A stretch of DNA of 26,119 bases from Myxococcota bacterium (GCA_040752415.1 JBFMGU010000149.1:1-26119); one strand, 5' to 3'; positions 2,536 to 11,248 are shown, numbered from the stretch's first letter. The notes: generated by a model not told the origin, from the sequence alone. Made by a program: numbers and translations.

Positions 2536-4203
2536 TCAGCGCGGCAGGCGCCGGCACAGCTCGTTCATCATCACGCGGTAGCCCACCTCCGAGGGGTGGA
2601 CCATGTCATTGAAGAGCACGGGGCTCTCACCGGGCATGAGCTCGCGCCCGTCGACGAAGATGCCGCCGCGCTTCTCCACCGCCGCCCTGCGTTCCGCCAG
2701 CCACGCGTCGCGCCCGAAGCGCCGGGCGTGCCCCAGGTCAAACGAGGCCACGTCGTAGACGTGCACCAGCGGCGGGCCTTCCGCGGCCACGCGCTCCACG
2801 CAGGAGAGCAGCTCGGCGCGTCGTGGGGCCTCCAGGTTGGCGACGGAGCACGCGGCCCAGGTGTCATGCGGCCGGGGGAGGGCGCGAGAGGGCACAAACG
2901 CCAGCAGGGTCCCCAGCCAGATGGAGAGCCGCGTGGCGGGCGCGGTGAGGTCGTCATTGAATCCGCCCACGAAGATGCGCTGTCGCGTCGTGGGCAGCCC
3001 GCGCGCCACCTGGGACCACGTGTCCGCGATGAAGCAGTGGTTCGCGCCGTCGACCGCGTGGCGCGCGTAGGTGATGCCCGGCCCGCCGCAGACCTCCTGC
3101 AGCACGCCGTCCAGCGCGCCCTTGCCGTAGCCCCCCTCGTCGAGGGCCGCGCCGTTGACGGTGGAGTAGCCCAGCACCAGGTGCGTGGTTCCCGACGCTG
3201 GCGCGGTGGAGGAGCCCGGCATGTTGCCCGACGCGTTCCAGTGGTTGAACCGCGTGTTGAGCTCCGCGAATCCCTGCGGCCCCACCCACAACAACGCGCC
3301 GCCACCCACCACGCCGGTGAGCGCACCCGCGCGCCACCGCGGGCTCACGCGCGCCTTCATCACCACCGTGGCCGCCAGCAGCGCGCAGCCCGCCGCCCCC
3401 TTCACCGCCCACAACGCAATCCACAACGGCGTGAGCCACGACGCGGCAAACACCACCACCACCGCGGTGGCATCCGTGCCCACCCACGCGGGCGTGCGCA
3501 ACGCCAGCCGGTGCACCACCGAGGCCAGCGCCACCAGCACCAGCAGCCACCACCGCCACCGCGTCTCCGCCAACGGCGCGCCCGCCACCCGCTGGATGAG
3601 CATGGAGGAGTCCGCGGAAGATAGCGCCAGCTCCGCGGTGACGACGGGAAGATCCCACCGGCACCGGCCCGCTTCCACCTGGAGCTGCGCGCCCTGTCGC
3701 ACGTGGAAGACCACCGGCTCCTGCGCGGAGAAACAGGTCAGGAGGGTCTGGAGCCGGGCCATGGGCGGCGGCGTGTCCAGCATGGGCTCCCGCGTGGCGG
3801 TACCGCTCTCGTCGACGAGCAGGGTCTCGAACGGCGCGGACGTGCCCGCGGAGCGCACCTGCAGGAGCAGCGGGGAGCGCGCCTCGTAGAGCTCCACGCG
3901 CATCTCGGTGGCGCCGCCCTCCGCGGTGCGGGCCATCACCGGGTAGCCGGGCGGAACGGTCAGCGCGTTCTCGTCGGAAAACGCGGGCTGGGGCAGCATG
4001 GTGTAGGACCACGCCGTGGCACGGGCGGTGATGTGTGAGGTGGGCTGGCCGTGCTCGTCGCGCGCGTAGATGAACACCGCCTTGGAGATGGCGTTGCCCG
4101 CCGGTTGCCAGGCGCGCAACAGGCTGTGCCAACTGGCCACGTCCAGCACCGTCAGGGCCGCGAACGCCAGCCAAAGCGCCCGGTCCCGACGAGAGGCATC
4201 CAT
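2536..4203 (-). CDS. Multi-pass membrane protein with C-terminal SGNH/GDSL-like domain
   Basis: N-terminal anchor, central TM helices, then LGYST (block I Ser, codon 3163-3165), VDGAN, GGFND (block III) and DMVH (block V DxxH, 2596-2607). Confidence 0.75.
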   Translation of the reverse strand: MDASRRDRALWLAFAALTVLDVASWHSLLRAWQPAGNAISKAVFIYARDEHGQPTSHITARATAWSYTMLPQPAFSDENALTVPPGYPVMARTAEGGATEMRVELYEARSPLLLQVRSAGTSAPFETLLVDESGTATREPMLDTPPPMARLQTLLTCFSAQEPVVFHVRQGAQLQVEAGRCRWDLPVVTAELALSSADSSMLIQRVAGAPLAETRWRWWLLVLVALASVVHRLALRTPAWVGTDATAVVVVFAASWLTPLWIALWAVKGAAGCALLAATVVMKARVSPRWRAGALTGVVGGGALLWVGPQGFAELNTRFNHWNASGNMPGSSTAPASGTTHLVLGYSTVNGAALDEGGYGKGALDGVLQEVCGGPGITYARHAVDGANHCFIADTWSQVARGLPTTRQRIFVGGFNDDLTAPATRLSIWLGTLLAFVPSRALPRPHDTWAACSVANLEAPRRAELLSCVERVAAEGPPLVHVYDVASFDLGHARRFGRDAWLAERRAAVEKRGGIFVDGRELMPGESPVLFNDMVHPSEVGYRVMMNELCRRLPR

Positions 4204-4352
4204 CAGAAGAGCGTGTAGATGAACGGCGCGGCCGCGGAGCCCTGCGTCAGCACCACCAGCAGCCCCAGCAGCACCAGCGCGGTGATGATGGGCGCCAGCC
4301 AGAACTTCTTCCGCTCACGCATGAATCCCCAGAGGTCCTTGAGAAAGTCCAT
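4203..4352 (-). CDS. SxtK-like / DUF5989-type small membrane protein, 49 aa
   Basis: Below the ORF-track cutoff. Translates MDFLKDLWGFMRERKKFWLAPIITALVLLGLLVVLTQGSAAAPFIYTLF*. TGATG overlaps with both neighbours. Confidence 0.92.
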   Translation of the reverse strand: MDFLKDLWGFMRERKKFWLAPIITALVLLGLLVVLTQGSAAAPFIYTLF

Positions 4353-4768
4353 CAGAACGGTCCCTCCATGCTGCGCGCGTCCCGCGGACGGCTTGGCACC
4401 CGGTATGTGCTAGCAGACTTGTCCAGCTTGCGCGCCATGGGGTCCTTCCCCAGCACGCGCATGATGAGCCCCGTGGGCATCACCACCAGGAAGAAGAACA
4501 CCCCCAGGATGATGCGGGAGTTGATGGCCCCCAGCACCAGGCCCACCTTCATCCACGCCTGGTAGATGAGGCGCATCAGCGGCAGCGCCACCAGCGCGGG
4601 CACCCAGAAGACCGCCGCCACCATCCAGGGCCAGCGCGGCAGGTCCACGCCCCGCAGCAGCGGGATGGCCAGCCCGAACAGGGCCACGAAGATGGCGCCG
4701 GTGGTGAGGCCGAACTTGCGCAGCCCCTTGTTGTCCAGCTCGGGAATGACGTGGGCGGAGGCAGTCAT
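4352..4768 (-). CDS. SxtJ-family membrane protein, 138 aa
   Basis: MTASAH...LRKFGLTTG...WMKVGLVLGAINSRIILGVFFFLVVMPTGLIMRVLGKDPM...MEGPF. ATG at 4768 overlaps the carbamoyltransferase stop; the ORF-track start 4909 is too far upstream. Confidence 0.9.
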   Translation of the reverse strand: MTASAHVIPELDNKGLRKFGLTTGAIFVALFGLAIPLLRGVDLPRWPWMVAAVFWVPALVALPLMRLIYQAWMKVGLVLGAINSRIILGVFFFLVVMPTGLIMRVLGKDPMARKLDKSASTYRVPSRPRDARSMEGPF

Positions 4769-6606
4769 CAGTCCAGCTCGAATTCCTTCTTCCAGCTCTC
4801 GTCCTTCACCTGCGCCGGCTGGTCCTTCTTGGCCAGCAGGAAGTCCTCCAGCACCAGGTGGTCCATCTCCGTGCGCATGAAGCAGCGGTACGCGTCCTGC
4901 GGCGTGCACACAATGGGCTCCCCGCGCACGTTGAATGACGTGTTCACCAGCACCCCGCAGCCCGTCTTCTGCTCGAAGAGCCGGATCAGCTCGTGGTAGC
5001 GCGGGTTGGTCTCCTTGTGCACCGTCTGGATGCGCGCGCTGTAGTCCACGTGCGTGATGGCCGGAATGGAGCTGCGCGGCACGTTGAGCTTCTCAATGCC
5101 AAACAGCTTCTGCTGCTCGTCCGTCATGGGGATGCGCAGCTTCTCCTGCACCGGCGCCACCAGCAGCATGTAGGGGCTGCGACCCTCCATCTCGAAGTAC
5201 TCGCCCACCTGCTCCGCCAGCACGCTGGGCGCGAAGGGCCGGAAGCTCTCGCGGTACTTGATCTTCAGGTTCATCACGCTCTGCATCTTGGGACTGCGCG
5301 GATCCCCGATGATGGAGCGGCCTCCCAGCGCGCGCGGACCGAACTCCATGCGCCCGCTCAGCCAGCCCACCACGTTCTCGCCGGCCAGGATGTCCGCCAC
5401 CCTGGGCAACAGCTGCTCGTCGGGGAGACGCTCGTATTTCGCGCCCACGGAGTCCAGGAAGGCCTGGATCTCGTCGCTGCGCGCGCGCGGGCCCAGGTAG
5501 GCGCCCTGCATGCTGTCGTGCGGCTCCGGGGTGCGCGGGTTGTCCAGGTACTGGTGCCACACCGAGAGCGCGCAGCCCAACGCGCCGCCAGCATCCCCCG
5601 CCGCGGGCTGGATCCACACGTCCTTGAAGCCGCACTCCCGCAGGATGCGCCCGTTGGCCACGCAGTTGAGCGCCACGCCGCCCGCCAGGCACAGGTTCTC
5701 GACGTCGAGCTCCTTCTTCACCGTGCGCGCCAGCCGCAGCACGATCTCTTCCGTCACCACCTGGATGCTGCGGGCCAGGTCCATCTCCCGCTGCGTCATC
5801 CACGCTTCCGGCTGGCGCGGCGGTCCACCAAACAGGTCATGGAACTTCGCGTTGGTCATGGTCAGACCCACGGCGTAGTTGAAGTAGTCCATGTTGAGGT
5901 GGAAGGTGCCGTCGTCCTTGAGGTCAATGATGTGCTTGAAGATGAGGTCGACGTACTTGGGCTCACCGTAGGGAGCCAGGCCCATCACCTTGTACTCGCC
6001 GGAGTTGACCTTGAAGCCGGTGTAGTAGGTGAACGCGGAGTAGAGCAGGCCCAGGCTGTGCGGGAAATCAATCTCCCACTGCGGCGTCAGTTTGTTGCCC
6101 TCACCCAGCCACACGCTGGAGGTGGCCCACTCCCCCACGCCGTCCAGGCACATGACGCCGGCGCGTTGGAACGGGCTGGGAAAGAACGCGCTGGCGGCGT
6201 GCGACTGGTGATGTTCCGCCCACAACACCCTGGGGAGCGCGTCCACCTTCATGCCGCCCAGCGCCGCCAACTCCCGACGGAGCATGGTCTTCAGGTACAG
6301 CTTCTCTTTGAGCCACACCGGCATGGCCTTGAGGAAGCTGGCAATCCCCTTGGGCGCGTACGCCAGGTACGTCTCCAGCAGGCGCTCGAACTTCACGAAG
6401 GGCTTGTCGTAGAAGACGATCCGGTCGACGTCCTTGAGCTGGAGCCCGGCCTCCTGCAGGCAGTAGCGGATGGCGTGTTGCGGGAAGCGCGCGTCATGCT
6501 TCTTGCGGCTGAAGCGCTCCTCCTGCGCCGCGGCGGTGATCCGCCCGTCCACGACGAGAGCTGCGGCGCTGTCATGGTAGTACGCGGAGAGGCCCAGGAT
6601 CTTCAT
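4768..6606 (-). CDS. O-carbamoyltransferase, NodU/CmcH/TobZ family (SxtI-like), 612 aa
   Basis: YHDSAAAL, EERFSRKKH, EHHQSHAAS, DGVGE, GEYKVMGLAPYG, AGGVALNC, GRMEFGPRALG, RESFRPFAP, NTSFNVRGEPIV. GGAGGAG RBS upstream. Confidence 0.97.
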   Translation of the reverse strand: MKILGLSAYYHDSAAALVVDGRITAAAQEERFSRKKHDARFPQHAIRYCLQEAGLQLKDVDRIVFYDKPFVKFERLLETYLAYAPKGIASFLKAMPVWLKEKLYLKTMLRRELAALGGMKVDALPRVLWAEHHQSHAASAFFPSPFQRAGVMCLDGVGEWATSSVWLGEGNKLTPQWEIDFPHSLGLLYSAFTYYTGFKVNSGEYKVMGLAPYGEPKYVDLIFKHIIDLKDDGTFHLNMDYFNYAVGLTMTNAKFHDLFGGPPRQPEAWMTQREMDLARSIQVVTEEIVLRLARTVKKELDVENLCLAGGVALNCVANGRILRECGFKDVWIQPAAGDAGGALGCALSVWHQYLDNPRTPEPHDSMQGAYLGPRARSDEIQAFLDSVGAKYERLPDEQLLPRVADILAGENVVGWLSGRMEFGPRALGGRSIIGDPRSPKMQSVMNLKIKYRESFRPFAPSVLAEQVGEYFEMEGRSPYMLLVAPVQEKLRIPMTDEQQKLFGIEKLNVPRSSIPAITHVDYSARIQTVHKETNPRYHELIRLFEQKTGCGVLVNTSFNVRGEPIVCTPQDAYRCFMRTEMDHLVLEDFLLAKKDQPAQVKDESWKKEFELD

Positions 6607-6822
6607 GGCGCATCTCCTCCGACGTGGCGGATGGGTTGGCAGCAGGTGGATGTCACGGCGCGCGCACCATAGGCCGGCTTCCTCTCGGCGTCATGGAACC
6701 GACTAGCACAGCACCCCCGGTCCTGGGGGGCGGACGTTGGTGTCCGTCGGTCACGTCCGCGTTCACGGGTCCAACACACCTTGGACTTGTGCCTGGCGGG
6801 GGCGCTTGCTCAACTTCTCGCC

Positions 6823-9315
6823 GTGCGTGGGCTGGGGCTCCTCCTGCTGGTGCTGGCCGTCTCGTGCGTGGGGACCCCGCGCGACGAGGACGCGCTGACG
6901 CCGGTGCACGCGCGGCTGGAGTCGGAGCAGGACGTGCTGGACCTGGGCGCCGTCGACGTGGGCTGGGCCCGGGAGGGGACCGCCAGCTTCCGCAACCCCG
7001 GCAACGCCGCCACCAACCTCAGCGCGCACGTGGAGCCGGAAGGCAGTCCCTTCACCGTGCTCACGCCCTCCGCCGCCGCCGCGCCCGACCGGCACGCGCG
7101 GGTCACGGTGCGTTTCCTGGCCTTCACGGAGGGCAGTGCTTCCGCGGTCCTGGTGGTGCGCCACGACGGGGAGGCCGACGCCAACGGGTCCCGCACGCTG
7201 CGCGTGGAGCTGCGCGCGCTGGCCCTCCCGCCGCCCAATTGCGACGACGGCAACGTGTGCACGCTGGATCAGCAGGACCCCGCAGTCCCCGGCGCGTGCC
7301 GGCACCTGCCCGTGGCGGGAACGTGTGACGACGGCAACGTGTGCACGCTGGCGGACCATTGCGAGGGCGGCGAGTGCCTGGGCACCCCACGCGTGTGTGA
7401 CGACGGGATTGCCTGCACCGCGGACACCTGTGACGCCGTGGCCGGCTGCCTGAGCACCCCGGTGGCCACGCTGTGCGCCGACGAGGATCCCTGCACTTCT
7501 GACGTGTGCGCGCCCGGCGCGGGTGCCGACGCGGCAGGATGCATTCACGAGCCGTCGCCGACGGGAACGCTGTGTGGCTCGCCCTCGTGCGGGGCGCTGC
7601 CGGTGTGCGTGGCCGGCGCGTGCGTGGCCACCACGGCGCCCGACGGGTTTCCGTGTGACGACGGGAATGCGTGCACCGGCGGGGAGACGTGCCAGGCGGG
7701 CGTATGCATGGCGGGCAGCGTGAGCTCGTTTGTGCTGGGAACGCCGGTGGTGCTCCGGGAGATTGCCTTGCCGGAGACGCCGCCCGTGCAGTCCATGGAC
7801 GCGGGGGTCTCCACCGTCGACGGAGGCGGCGCCTGGGAGTGTGACGACGGGGCCTGCGGGGTTCCGCCCACCACGCCCAGCCCGCAGCCGCTCTTCGGCA
7901 GCTGGCCCATTGCCGTGGACGCCATGGCCACCGTCCCCACGTACTCCGTGGAAGGCTACAACCTGCTGACGTTGTGGCGCGGCGCGGAAGGCTACGAGGG
8001 TTCCTGGTGTTACTCGCACCCGGCGAGTTGCGCGCAACGTCCCCCCCACGCCTGTGAGCCCGTCTACGCCGTCATGCCGGTCACCACGTTGAACGCCAGC
8101 ATGATCACTCCGTCGGGGGAGGCGCTCTCGCGGTCCACGTTGTCGCTGGAGGCCGTCTACCGGCGCGCCATGGCGTTCACGTCGTGGCCCGTGGGCCCGG
8201 AGTCCAGCGTCCCTCCCGGCAACATCCTGGGGGTGGCAGCCGCCGGGCACATGAGCTCCGCGCCCATTGGCGCGGCGGTGGCGGTGGATTTCAACTCACG
8301 TTGCGCACCGTGCGGGGACGCGCCCGTGGATGGCTGCGCGCCAGCGGGGGAGGCGGTGGCGGTGGTGCTGGCCAGCATGGCCGGATTCCATCTCTCCGAC
8401 GTCATCTGGCTGGGTGACGATGGCGACGGCGCGTTCCCAGACGTGCTGGTGCGTGGCCCGGATGGTCTCCCGCTCATGGCGGCGTGGGGAGATGATGCCG
8501 CCCTGGAAGTGGCCTTTGCCACGGTTGGGACCGAGCCGTGCAACCCGGTGTGCTCGTCGGAGAGCTGTGAATGCCACAACAACGTGACGCTGCACGTCCG
8601 TTCCTATGAGGTGGCGTACATGGACGGGTTGCCGACGGCCCGGTTCACCTCGTCCAACGAGATTCCGCTCGTGCGCCGCGACGACGTGGTGACCGGGGGG
8701 CTGTCGTCGCTGCGGTTGGTGGACCTGGGCGGGATGCGTGAGCTGACCTGGCTGGAGCGTTCCACGGTGACGCCGCCCTCGGTGGACTGCGCATTGCCGG
8801 TGTCGGCGTTGTGGGACCTGTGGCGGACGCCCGTCGGACAGTCGACCGCGCAGGGCCCGCAGGTCCACCATGCCGGTGTCATGGACGCGCAGCTGGCGTT
8901 TGGCACCCGGGCGTTCAACGCGGTTCTCTCCTGGGCGGAGCCCACCACGTCGTGCGAGCTTCCGCAGGTGCTCACTTCCGACCACGGCGGCGCGGTGCAG
9001 GAGCTGATGCGCCACACGCTTCCCGGTGTGGTGGTGGAGGGCCTGGAGCTGGTTGTCGCCAACGGAACGCCGCACGTCGTGGCTGTCCACGGAGACGGAC
9101 TGGTGACCGCCATGACCCTCACCGCGGAAGTCACCACCGCAACCGGCGGCTTCAACCCCAGCGACGACGCGCGCATCCACCCCCAGAGCCCCCTGCGTCC
9201 CGTGTGGGATGACTGGGCGTTCCGCGCCGTGGGCGGGATTGCGGAGGTGGGCATCTACCGCGACTCGTTCCCGCTTCCCGCCATGGTGGTGATGCCGGCG
9301 GCCTGCGGACCGTGA
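6823..9315 (+). CDS. Cys-rich lipoprotein: Ig-like domain, CDDGNxCT repeats, unrecognised C-terminal region
   Basis: GTG at 6823 gives MRGLGLLLLVLAVSC (lipobox); TTG 6781 is an alternative start. LDLGAVDVG...FRNPG is an Ig-like module, followed by about five CDDGN(V/A)CT-type repeats. Confidence 0.8.
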   Translation: MRGLGLLLLVLAVSCVGTPRDEDALTPVHARLESEQDVLDLGAVDVGWAREGTASFRNPGNAATNLSAHVEPEGSPFTVLTPSAAAAPDRHARVTVRFLAFTEGSASAVLVVRHDGEADANGSRTLRVELRALALPPPNCDDGNVCTLDQQDPAVPGACRHLPVAGTCDDGNVCTLADHCEGGECLGTPRVCDDGIACTADTCDAVAGCLSTPVATLCADEDPCTSDVCAPGAGADAAGCIHEPSPTGTLCGSPSCGALPVCVAGACVATTAPDGFPCDDGNACTGGETCQAGVCMAGSVSSFVLGTPVVLREIALPETPPVQSMDAGVSTVDGGGAWECDDGACGVPPTTPSPQPLFGSWPIAVDAMATVPTYSVEGYNLLTLWRGAEGYEGSWCYSHPASCAQRPPHACEPVYAVMPVTTLNASMITPSGEALSRSTLSLEAVYRRAMAFTSWPVGPESSVPPGNILGVAAAGHMSSAPIGAAVAVDFNSRCAPCGDAPVDGCAPAGEAVAVVLASMAGFHLSDVIWLGDDGDGAFPDVLVRGPDGLPLMAAWGDDAALEVAFATVGTEPCNPVCSSESCECHNNVTLHVRSYEVAYMDGLPTARFTSSNEIPLVRRDDVVTGGLSSLRLVDLGGMRELTWLERSTVTPPSVDCALPVSALWDLWRTPVGQSTAQGPQVHHAGVMDAQLAFGTRAFNAVLSWAEPTTSCELPQVLTSDHGGAVQELMRHTLPGVVVEGLELVVANGTPHVVAVHGDGLVTAMTLTAEVTTATGGFNPSDDARIHPQSPLRPVWDDWAFRAVGGIAEVGIYRDSFPLPAMVVMPAACGP
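7243..7351 (+). repeat. 25-bp exact direct repeat encoding DDGNVCTL
   Basis: gacgacggcaacgtgtgcacgctgg at 7243-7267 and 7327-7351. Confidence 0.85.
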
Positions 9316-9321
9316 GCTGCC

Positions 9322-9351
9322 TTGCCGCGCCTTGCCACGCGTTCCTATAAG
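9322..9351 (+). promoter_or_regulatory. Candidate sigma70-type promoter for the second carbamoyltransferase
   Basis: TTGCCG (9322-9327), 18-nt spacer, TATAAG (9346-9351), about 30 nt before ATG 9380. Confidence 0.45.
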
Positions 9352-9379
9352 CGCCATCCCGACGAGAACGAGGTCCGCC

Positions 9380-11248
9380 ATGAAGGTGCTGGGCTACAAC
9401 GGAGGCATTGACGGCTACCCCTCACGCTTTGGCGCCAGCCACAATGCCGCGGCGGCCATCATCGTCGACGGGGAGCTGGTGGCGGCGTGTGAGGAGGAGC
9501 GCTTCACGCGGGAGAAGCATTCCGGCGCCTTCCCGCGCCACGCCATTGACTTCTGCCTCGCCGAGGCCGGCGTCAAGGATCCCAGTGAGCTGGACCTGGT
9601 GGCGTATTTCTACTCGTACCCGCTGATGTTCCGCTCGGAAGTGCTGAGCACCAACGGGCGCGGCATGAATGCGTTGCACAAGGCCAGCGTGTGGACCGTG
9701 CTGCGCACCATGCAGACGTTCAACAAGCTCGCGGGCTACTCCGACGACCGCAGCCGGCGCGCCTTTGAGCGCCACATGGGCATCTCGCTGCGGGACAACC
9801 AGTACACCGTGGTGCCGCACCACATGTGTCACCTGGCCAGCACCTTCTATGACTCACCTTTTGACCGCGCGCTGTGCCTGACCATGGACGCGCAGGGTGA
9901 GAGCACGTGCAGCCTGGCGGCGGTGGCGCGCGGGACGGAGATCACCACGCTGCGGGAAGTCCTCATCCCCAACAGCCTGGGCTACCTCTACACGTTCATC
10001 ACCGCCTTCCTCGGCTTTGACTGGCACGACGAGTACAAGGTGATGGGCCTGGCCCCCTACGGCAACCGCGCCGCGTACCGCGACTTCTTCCGCAGCATCA
10101 TCCGCAAGGACGCCGACGGACAATACGAGGTGGAGCAGGGCCTCATTGCGCAGCTGGTGGCCGCCAACGCCATGCCCGCCGGCGACGTCATCTATCCCGC
10201 GCGGCTCACGGAAGGGCTCGGTCCCCGTCGACGGGGCGACGAGCCGGTGACGCAGCGACACATGGACATTGCCGCGGGGCTGCAGGATGCGCTGGAGGAC
10301 ACCGTGGTGCACACGCTCTCCGCGCTCAGGGACCAGACCGGGGAGAAGAACCTGTGCATGGCGGGCGGGGTGGCGCTGAACTCCACCATGAACGGCGTGG
10401 TGGCGCGCAGCGGCATGTTCGAGAACGTCTGGGTCCATGCGGCCGCCCACGACGGAGGAACCTGCGTGGGGGCCGCCATGTACGGCTACCACAACGTGCT
10501 GGGCCAGCCGCGCCACTTCCAGAGGAAGAAGCACCGTTACCTGGGCCCCGGCTTCACCGGCGCCATGGTGGAGGATGCGCTCAAGACGTTTGACGCCAAG
10601 ATCACGCACCAGCGTCCGGGGGACCTCGTGGAGCACGTGGCCAAGGCCATTGCCGACGGAAAGGTGGTGGGCTGGTACCAGGGCCGCATGGAGTGGGGCC
10701 CGCGCGCGCTGGGCAACCGCAGCATCCTCGCCGACGCGCGTCGCGACGACATGAAGGACATCGTGAATCACGCGGTGAAGCTGCGGGAGGGCTTCCGTCC
10801 CTTCGCTCCCGCGGTTCTCGACGAGCACGCGCGCGAGTGGTTTGACCTCACCGGCCTTCCCGACAGTCCCTACATGCTCTTCGTGGTGCCCGTGCAGCCG
10901 GACAAGCGCCAGCGCATCCCGGCCATAACCCACGTCGACGGGAGCGCGCGCGTGCAGACGGTGACGGAGGCGGAGAACCCGCGCTTCCATGCGCTCATCC
11001 GCGCGTTCCACCAGCTCACCGGCGTGCCCGTGGTGCTGAACACCAGCTTCAACGTGAAGGGTGAGCCGATCGTGAACACCCCCGCCGACGCGGTGCGCTG
11101 CTTCCTCGGCACCCAGATCGACCTGCTGGTGATCGACGACGTCGTCATCGAGAAGCGGCCGGAGGTGGCGGCGGCGCTGGAGGCGGAGCGCGGCAGGCAC
11201 GGCCAGCACACCGGGCGCGTGGTGCAGGGCCAGATCAGCGTGGCGTGA
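9380..11248 (+). CDS. Second NodU/CmcH-family carbamoyltransferase, 622 aa
   Basis: MKVLG..., EEERFTREKH, HHMCHLAS, DAQGE, EYKVMGLAPYG, AGGVALNS, GRMEWGPRALGNRS, REGFRPFAP, NTSFNVKGEPIV. Confidence 0.95.
   Translation: MKVLGYNGGIDGYPSRFGASHNAAAAIIVDGELVAACEEERFTREKHSGAFPRHAIDFCLAEAGVKDPSELDLVAYFYSYPLMFRSEVLSTNGRGMNALHKASVWTVLRTMQTFNKLAGYSDDRSRRAFERHMGISLRDNQYTVVPHHMCHLASTFYDSPFDRALCLTMDAQGESTCSLAAVARGTEITTLREVLIPNSLGYLYTFITAFLGFDWHDEYKVMGLAPYGNRAAYRDFFRSIIRKDADGQYEVEQGLIAQLVAANAMPAGDVIYPARLTEGLGPRRRGDEPVTQRHMDIAAGLQDALEDTVVHTLSALRDQTGEKNLCMAGGVALNSTMNGVVARSGMFENVWVHAAAHDGGTCVGAAMYGYHNVLGQPRHFQRKKHRYLGPGFTGAMVEDALKTFDAKITHQRPGDLVEHVAKAIADGKVVGWYQGRMEWGPRALGNRSILADARRDDMKDIVNHAVKLREGFRPFAPAVLDEHAREWFDLTGLPDSPYMLFVVPVQPDKRQRIPAITHVDGSARVQTVTEAENPRFHALIRAFHQLTGVPVVLNTSFNVKGEPIVNTPADAVRCFLGTQIDLLVIDDVVIEKRPEVAAALEAERGRHGQHTGRVVQGQISVA

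Follow-up and report, generated by a model that had tools for sequence, protein, structure and literature searches.

A carbamoyltransferase, SxtJ and DUF5989 cassette of a Myxococcota bacterium whose comparative anatomy fits a tyrosine-shuttle relay for carbamoyl groups

Why should a cytoplasmic carbamoyltransferase be encoded in one operon with two small membrane proteins and a membrane-bound SGNH-like enzyme, when one of the small proteins ends in a motif known from tyrosine acyl shuttles? The question is raised by a stretch of 26,119 nucleotides from a Myxococcota bacterium (GCA_040752415.1 JBFMGU010000149.1:1-26119; the whole of this stretch is called the window below), in which four minus-strand genes at 2536-6606 encode a carbamoyltransferase (CT), an SxtJ-family membrane protein, a DUF5989 (SxtK-type) microprotein and a polytopic protein with an SGNH-like domain. 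An original prediction from the window's sequence had proposed that these proteins pass a carbamoyl group outwards as the Dlt system passes D-alanine, with the CT and SxtJ in place of the membrane-bound O-acyltransferase (MBOAT). Our analysis indicates that the cassette is real and widespread, and that its comparative anatomy fits a carbamoyl version of a tyrosine-shuttle relay. The cassette probably carbamoylates a surface molecule by a route that has not been described; that it does so as a Dlt/Pat-like group-transfer relay, with an ATP-dependent CT replacing the MBOAT, is to our minds an even proposition.

The cassette is a single translationally coupled four-gene operon. The CT gene (4768-6606; 612 amino acids, aa), with GGAGGAG just 5' of its start codon, is followed on the same strand by the open reading frames (ORFs) for SxtJ (4352-4768; 138 aa), the microprotein (4203-4352; 49 aa) and the polytopic membrane protein (2536-4203; 555 aa), the SGNH-like C-terminal domain of which (residues 325-555) occupies 2539-3231. 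Reading of the sequence gives a 1-nt TGATG overlap at three of the three gene junctions, and the downstream neighbour, an endonuclease/exonuclease/phosphatase-family gene on the plus strand (1510-2532; Pfam), is convergent; the four genes are therefore translationally coupled, and the single operon that had been proposed is confirmed.

The feature that recalls acyl shuttles is found in the microprotein. It matches DUF5989 (PF19451) over positions 1-49 of 49 with 97.3 bits (cut-off 27), and PF19451 was the only Pfam family reported at E<=0.01, so that membership of Pfam DltX (which we take to be PF12459) was not obtained. The protein has a basic N-terminus, a single transmembrane (TM) segment at residues 17-35 and an uncharged C-terminal tail, and it ends in FIYTLF directly before the stop codon (hexapeptide codons 4206-4223, minus strand; Tyr codon TAC at 4215-4217; stop TGA directly after), just as the predicted single-TM peptide should. 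This ending fits the published FXYXXF acyl-shuttle motif, which DltX and the C-termini of bacterial MBOATs carry; the tail of PatA is FIYANF (PMC12148441). Homologues of the peptide comprise 1931 small proteins and 3102 cluster representatives (HMMER, clusters at 50% identity), and the microprotein is far from a chance ORF.

We examined this tail in two sets of DUF5989 loci, the first with 80 loci from many phyla (flanks of ±8 kb) and the second with 74 further independent loci including SAR11, Nitrospira, rhizobia and cyanobacteria. The F.Y..F tail stands at the exact C-terminus of 79 of the 80 ORFs in the first set and of 74 of the 74 in the second, but these counts are inflated because the tail octapeptide was one of the six search patterns in both locus scans. 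HMMER and Pfam-based searches are free of this bias, with inspection limited to the best matches. Word-index and HMMER searches gave 269 proteins, and the motif forms the end of 236 of them; the remaining 33 either carry the motif plus unrelated extra residues (23) or diverge within or just after it (10), and we read both kinds of ending as putative read-through or frameshift artefacts. In 51 aligned homologues W19, P22, P44, F45, Y47 and F50 are invariant, and the N-terminal DLWGF..RKK segment is also highly conserved. Two of the four findings named in advance as telling against the original prediction were looked for, namely a tyrosine not conserved in homologues and a lack of association with SGNH genes; as to the former, the whole F-x-Y-x-x-F tail is kept and its Tyr is invariant in the aligned sequences. 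Over the 80 peptides the mean number of Lys plus Arg is 3.6 in the 15 residues before the TM helix versus 0.025 in the tail, which has no acidic residues either; by the positive-inside rule this asymmetry predicts an N-in/C-out topology, with the P-F-[IV]-Y-x-x-F tail outside the cytoplasm.

A few observations on unusual family members may be added. The sole tail departing from F.Y..F among the 80 ORFs, LIYPIF, ends the second of two tandem DUF5989 genes in locus L028 (8001-8340). Genuine DUF5989 fusions were sought among 18 longer proteins and rejected, since nearly all of these are single-contig singletons resembling gene-calling run-ons; SxtJ and DUF5989 Pfam labels occur together on one of them and CT and DUF5989 labels on another, which we do not take as evidence of fusion. 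The possibility that the microprotein is a modified-peptide precursor was likewise discarded, identities across phyla being at least 80%.

The CT, SxtJ and DUF5989 genes constitute a conserved donor module across many phyla. Of the 80 loci in the first set, 72 contain the CT and 75 contain SxtJ, several of the gaps being contig ends; of the 74 loci in the second, 70 contain the CT and 72 SxtJ. DUF5989 cassettes are found in cyanobacteria, SAR11, Nitrospira, Bacteroidota, Planctomycetota, Acidobacteriota, Myxococcota and other lineages, and among 201 sampled genomes of the window's own phylum 58 possess DUF5989; the 27 genomes that match the Pfam SxtJ model are all included in these 58.

The membrane-anchored SGNH gene is the only recurrent fourth partner of this triad. 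A Pfam scan of 273 flanking ORFs (280 had been selected, seven very long ones being left out for size) placed GDSL/SGNH domains next to the triad in 18 loci, and the 18 proteins are mutually related. In the first set, where SGNH counts were taken over 79 loci, a hidden Markov model (HMM) iterated from them finds a family member somewhere in the flank of 40 loci; for 39 loci there is one within 1.5 kb and for 35 within 300 bp. The corresponding numbers for the 74 loci of the second set are 45, 39 and 34. In the first set the nearest match lies on the triad's strand in 35 of 40 cases. Matches farther than 1.5 kb from the triad are rare (two and about seven in the respective sets), which makes the linkage a local and specific one. 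Both sets thus show the association with SGNH genes (39/79 and 39/74 loci within 1.5 kb), and no other recurrent neighbour was detected in the 67 loci without an SGNH gene, where only clusters of two or three proteins were obtained. An N-terminal hydrophobic segment preceded by basic residues is seen in 48 of 54 SGNH ORFs, the other six being fragments, and G131, S133 and H353 are invariant in 43 neighbour sequences. By Pfam, these 43 proteins match PF13472 (33), the AlgX acetyltransferase model (6), F5/8-type-C domains (6) and DltD (1).

The arrangement of SGNH genes varies among lineages. Syntrophaceae-like loci (L022, L023, L025 and L028) have SGNH proteins of about 580 aa with a C-terminal F5/8-type-C (discoidin) domain on both sides of the triad. 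In cyanobacteria SxtJ-DUF5989 is followed by tandem SGNH paralogues, with five in Trichodesmium erythraeum (L008, 9051-16150) and at least two in each of L006 and L086-L092; the single CT gene of T. erythraeum lies about 22 kb from its SxtJ-DUF5989 pair. Five genomes that have the triad but no adjacent SGNH gene possess family matches elsewhere, numbering 3, 7, 12, 2 and 23. Two genomes, G206 (which holds L160; 23 SGNH-profile matches) and G202 (which holds L016; 3), give no Pfam MBOAT match, and each shows a DUF5989 locus. Such a pattern would agree with a single donor module that supplies several SGNH enzymes.

The same SGNH family also leads to the MBOAT systems. The neighbour HMM, for which DUF5989 neighbours were the sole source, matches the ±1.5 kb flanks of 22 of 31 MBOAT loci, several of the matches being weak (1e-5 to 1e-8) because the flanks are cut, and 28 of the 31 sampled MBOATs end in [F/T]xYxxF. 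In locus L164, for instance, which comes from one of the five genomes without an SGNH gene at the triad, an SGNH gene, an MBOAT gene ending in FIYFEF and another SGNH gene are followed by ABC-2 exporter genes, and the MBOAT-adjacent SGNH protein is the best match of its genome. By sequence comparison, then, the same kind of presumably outward-facing SGNH enzyme is the partner both of tail-bearing MBOATs and of the CT-SxtJ pair with its tail-bearing microprotein. MBOATs themselves are missing from the triad's surroundings: the MBOAT HMM matches 3 of 155 DUF5989 loci, each time at least about 4 kb from the triad, it finds none in the window, and Pfam recognises neither an MBOAT nor an AT3 domain among the 273 scanned neighbours. 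The claim that the cassette lacks an MBOAT is accordingly upheld.

The window CT (PF02543 and PF16861) has full-length matches to Carbam_trans_N (E 6.5e-120, 1-346 of 346) and Carbam_trans_C (E 2.7e-74, 1-170 of 170), which gives it the architecture of Kae1-like plus YrdC-like domains. No hydrophobic segment was found in it, placing it in the cytoplasm and agreeing with its initial description as a soluble NodU-family enzyme without signal peptide; the equivalog model for NodU proper (NCBIfam NF041651) is not reached (150 bits versus a cut-off of 1000). It is 46-71% identical (median 60%) to 68 triad-linked CTs from many phyla, and 27% of the positions in triad CTs show conservation of 95% or more. 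The CTs have a median pairwise identity of 59%, as against about 31% for SxtJ and about 27% for the neighbour SGNH proteins. The extreme C-terminus of the window CT (last 12 residues, 4768-4803) bears the residues W-K-K-E-F-E-L-D, and the pattern W..[EQ][FY].LD is kept at the C-terminus of triad CTs across many phyla. It is absent from the second CT of the window and from the CT of an SxtJ-less second cassette in the same genome (both described below), and this tail may serve to dock the enzyme on SxtJ.

The identification of SxtJ as a membrane protein of the cassette is likewise sound, as PF19588 is matched at 59.8 bits (gathering cut-off 24.4) over positions 1-98 of 99. An AlphaFold2 (AF2) model has a pLDDT (predicted local distance difference test) of 91.6, with three helices at 13-39, 46-60 and 62-105, and a Foldseek search of this confident model against the PDB returned no structural relative at E<=0.001 (best E 2). 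Conservation within the family is strongest at the cytoplasmic end, where the consensus of the C-terminal third (4355-4480 in the window) contains TP.GL..R..G.DPM and then, in a conserved basic tail with Tyr residues, S-Y-W and a terminal R-Y..Q-F; the window SxtJ keeps the first Tyr (Y122) of this basic tail but ends in MEGPF.

The fourth protein of the window is a less typical member of its class. Its 555 residues comprise a first TM helix, a beta-sandwich domain (about 39-211), about four TM helices and the C-terminal SGNH-like domain. No Pfam or NCBIfam model matches it at E<=0.01, a profile search of the PDB gave no sequence match for its family at E<=10, the first set of 80 loci yielded no homologue (E<=1e-3), and among 5.8 billion proteins just two homologues were found (45% and 39% identical). 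G345-Y-S347 (block I), G386, G414-F-N416-D (block III) and D533-x-x-H536 (block V) are invariant in the three sequences (Ser347 codon 3163-3165, Asp533 2605-2607, His536 2596-2598). For residues 325-555 the ESM Atlas gives a feature score of 0.93 and structural matches with TM-scores of 0.66-0.75, all of them to SGNH/GDSL clusters, the Atlas model itself having a pLDDT of 0.51. The AF2 model (alignment of three rows; mean pLDDT 47) shows an N-terminal helix, a beta-rich domain at 39-207 (pLDDT 70-88) and a helical membrane block at 214-324, and its SGNH part is unusable for a fold search because pLDDT there is about 35. Loops rich in Lys and Arg occur at residues 1-8 and 284-293, and with the helix count and the positive-inside rule they would leave the beta domain and the SGNH domain facing outward. 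The assignment as SGNH is reasonable, although the protein is an atypical and rare representative: the predicted membrane protein with intact Ser and DxxH stands as far as the invariant S347, N416, D533 and H536 are concerned, but it goes without a Pfam, NCBIfam or PDB sequence match. The beta-sandwich (about 3570-4090), a confidently modelled part, has a weak likeness to galectin, SPRY and GH32/43 C-terminal modules in VIA-align (Z values of 5-6.8; 6.3-6.8 for the galectin-like matches). It may bind sugars, although common arrangements give Z values of this size as well.

The conservation of the tail, the SGNH linkage, the kinship with MBOAT partners and the absence of an MBOAT mean that the comparative predictions of a Dlt-like carbamoyl relay hold. 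Enzymes of the CT family make carbamoyl-AMP from carbamoyl phosphate and ATP, and in the proposed relay the cassette CT would do the same. Docked on SxtJ and on the conserved cytoplasmic N-terminus of the microprotein, it would then carbamoylate the tail Tyr, SxtJ offering a path where donor and tail meet. The resulting O-carbamoyl-Tyr would be an activated aryl carbamate able to carbamoylate the Ser of the SGNH enzyme, which in turn would hand the group to a hydroxyl of an extracytoplasmic acceptor. The general form of this scheme, in which CT and SxtJ load carbamoyl on the Tyr of DUF5989/SxtK proteins and these serve one or many outward SGNH transferases as a widespread trans-membrane route, we put slightly below an even chance. 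The conserved donor module together with the highly variable SGNH enzymes suggests that the SGNH protein determines acceptor specificity. In many related loci the acceptor is most likely a glycan, judging by the glycan-synthesis genes and sugar-binding domains present there; the neighbours in the window are secreted Cys-rich, Ser-rich and Ig-like proteins, and a glycan acceptor gains no support from this window.

Several observations weigh against such a relay. Its weakest step is the crossing of the membrane, as no route is evident by which the carbamoyl group could pass from the cytoplasmic CT to a Tyr with a predicted position outside. Only P98 and D109 of SxtJ are conserved at 90% or more, and both are situated at the cytoplasmic end of the last helix; we saw in SxtJ no conserved catalytic residue inside the membrane, no MBOAT-like tunnel and no catalytic His. 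Known CT-family members target aliphatic hydroxyls. In roughly half of the loci the 1.5 kb around the triad contain no gene of the SGNH family. SGNH paralogues outnumber triads (up to 23 per genome), and the family is therefore not dedicated to the triad. As for the window itself, the 555-aa protein matches the recurrent neighbour SGNH family over block V only (13.9 bits; hhalign probability 91.9% over 51 columns), and helix counting and the positive-inside rule are the sole basis of its outward orientation. The inflation of the tail counts belongs here too. A complex model of a neighbour SGNH protein (L017, 380 aa, 43 rows) with the DUF5989 protein of its own locus (50 aa, 51 rows) scored 0.00 and 0.01 against a mark of 0.32, but it was made without controls and counts neither for nor against binding.

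The main rival to the relay is that SxtJ and DUF5989 are a tether or adaptor and do no more than keep the CT on the cytoplasmic side of the membrane, so that the enzyme itself carbamoylates a substrate that is lipid-linked or nascent; the tail would then serve the assembly or stability of SxtJ-DUF5989, and the SGNH enzymes would be independent, for example O-acyl esterases or transferases of the same glycan locus. We consider this unlikely, yet it has the most to recommend it among the alternatives to be weighed: it accommodates the half of the loci without an adjacent SGNH gene, the cytoplasmic position of the conserved SxtJ residues and of the CT tail W..EFxLD fits docking, the DLWGF..RKK segment of the microprotein is highly conserved, and glycan-synthesis genes are frequent among the neighbours. 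The saxitoxin literature, in the part available to us, also takes SxtI with SxtJ/SxtK as one carbamoylating unit (PMC2679770). However, a mere anchor needs no four invariant residues in an uncharged, predicted extracytoplasmic tail that match the acyl-shuttle motif exactly, no fourth partner other than SGNH genes recurs (these lie within 300 bp in 35 loci of the first set and 34 of the second), and the same SGNH family flanks MBOATs with shuttle tails.

Two further explanations seem improbable to us, neither more so than the other. Most SGNH enzymes are hydrolases, and with catalytic Ser and His intact the SGNH partner could act outside the cell as a decarbamoylase or an editing esterase and cut back what the carbamoylating unit has added, the Tyr tail being no covalent carrier. 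Such a role has been proposed for SxtL, a GDSL-type protein encoded after sxtK, as a remover of carbamoyl, but in the accessible parts of the two reports it is itself a mere proposal (PMC2679770, PMC2885083). The invariant shuttle motif is left unexplained by a hydrolase, and of the 43 neighbours six match the AlgX acetyltransferase model and one DltD, the family also flanking MBOAT transferase systems. Alternatively, the microprotein could be a single-use carrier or a substrate: its Tyr would be carbamoylated in the cytoplasm before insertion of the tail, with SxtJ as a dedicated insertase, or the peptide would be the end product. This would dispense with a trans-membrane donor path, and the TM helix of the 49-aa protein ends 13 residues from the C-terminus, which suggests post-translational insertion. 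One peptide per transferred group would nevertheless be costly, near-identity of the whole peptide across phyla is unlike modified-peptide precursors, and the adjacent outward-facing SGNH enzymes would still have to be explained.

The genome of the window has a second cassette, on contig C475 (L083, 8293-12888, minus strand), which runs from an SGNH gene (AlgX model, 5.9e-11) through a 275-aa ORF without a family assignment and a CT gene to a microprotein with FVYTVF at its end. The CT is 45% identical to that of the window cassette, and the microprotein is DUF5989-like but divergent, with a longer N-terminus (E 1.5e-9 in the Pfam-based search). No SxtJ was detected in this cassette. After the microprotein there is a Cys-rich lipoprotein-like ORF with an EB-module match. 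In the window, a secreted Cys-rich protein of 844 aa with Dicty_CTDC, HYDIN-like Ig and EB-module matches is encoded divergently from the four-gene cassette (6781-9315, plus strand), and 17 nt after it starts a second CT gene (9332-11248, plus strand), whose 638-aa product is 38.6% identical to the cassette CT, with neither an SxtJ or DUF5989 partner nor the W..EFxLD tail. Cys-rich EB-module proteins thus adjoin both CT loci of this genome. Past the convergent gene downstream of the operon, an ORF at 1 to about 1450 (minus strand) encodes a lipoprotein-like signal (…LLCLVVVVGAC…) together with Ser/Gly-rich tracts of great length, and it matches no Pfam family.

The elucidation of tyrosine acyl shuttles (DltX, PatA) is recent, and to our knowledge every such shuttle receives its group from a membrane acyltransferase of the MBOAT or AT3 kind. 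If the proposed relay is true, the cassette would be the first tyrosine-shuttle system with a donor enzyme that is neither, and the shuttle logic would come to include another chemical group and, with the soluble ATP-dependent carbamoyltransferases, another class of donor. It would explain how carbamoyl is delivered to molecules already outside the cytoplasm, and it would assign functions to proteins of the SxtJ, SxtK and SxtL types, DUF5989 and SxtJ having stood unexplained since the saxitoxin clusters were described. As the cassette is common (DUF5989 in 58 of 201 sampled genomes of the phylum, and in very abundant marine and soil lineages), any surface modification that it produces could matter for recognition by phages, predators or hosts. 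In the open-access and bioRxiv literature we found no paper that names DUF5989, none that links carbamoyltransferases with DltX and none that connects the cassette with envelope carbamoylation, while the term 'acyl shuttle' was met only in the PatAB paper and its preprint.

Among known systems the closest in gene order is the saxitoxin cluster, after which the SxtJ family is named in Pfam. The portions of the two reports available to us give the succession sxtI (carbamoyltransferase, 1839 bp), sxtJ (405 bp), sxtK (165 bp) and sxtL (GDSL-type, 1281 bp), with sxtJ and sxtK listed as unknown and sxtL as a proposed decarbamoylase (PMC2679770; PMC2885083). The order is that of the cassette, the length of sxtI equals that of the window CT gene, and the predicted link to SxtJ/SxtK is consistent with this published arrangement as far as it was available. 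From gene size and position only, we infer that SxtK is a DUF5989 member with a Tyr tail; no saxitoxin cluster was present among the 80 loci kept from the search with the Trichodesmium peptide. Unlike the envelope polymer proposed for the cassette, the substrate of the saxitoxin clusters is a small alkaloid. NodU/NolO, CmcH and TobZ share the two-domain architecture with full-length Pfam matches, but they act alone on soluble cytoplasmic substrates, whereas the window CT belongs to a clade tied to SxtJ and DUF5989.

On the side of the shuttles, acetyltransferases of the OatA type (AT3-SGNH) are described in the accessible part of one source as passing a tyrosine-bound acyl intermediate to an SGNH domain outside the membrane (PMC12148441), and they differ from the cassette in their AT3 domain, their fused architecture and acetyl-CoA as donor. 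The MBOAT-SGNH pairs of O-acetylation, PatA/PatB and AlgI/AlgJ/AlgX, have the same tail motif and SGNH partners of the same broad family as the DUF5989 neighbours, but they carry the tail fused to the MBOAT and use acetyl-CoA, while the tail of the cassette is on a separate microprotein and no more than 3 of 155 loci have an MBOAT within 6-8 kb. From DltB-DltX-DltD the cassette departs in that it lacks an MBOAT, a carrier protein and a match to Pfam DltX, by a NodU-type CT as donor with carbamoyl as the proposed group, and by a membrane partner, SxtJ, of 138 aa with no evident catalytic residue. What it shares with the Dlt system, as far as that is described in the part of the source available (PMC12148441), is a free-standing single-pass microprotein ending in an F-x-Y-x-x-F tail, a membrane partner, a membrane-anchored SGNH enzyme and a cytoplasmic ATP-dependent activating enzyme, the tail and the SGNH enzyme lying outside in the Dlt system and being predicted to do so in the cassette.

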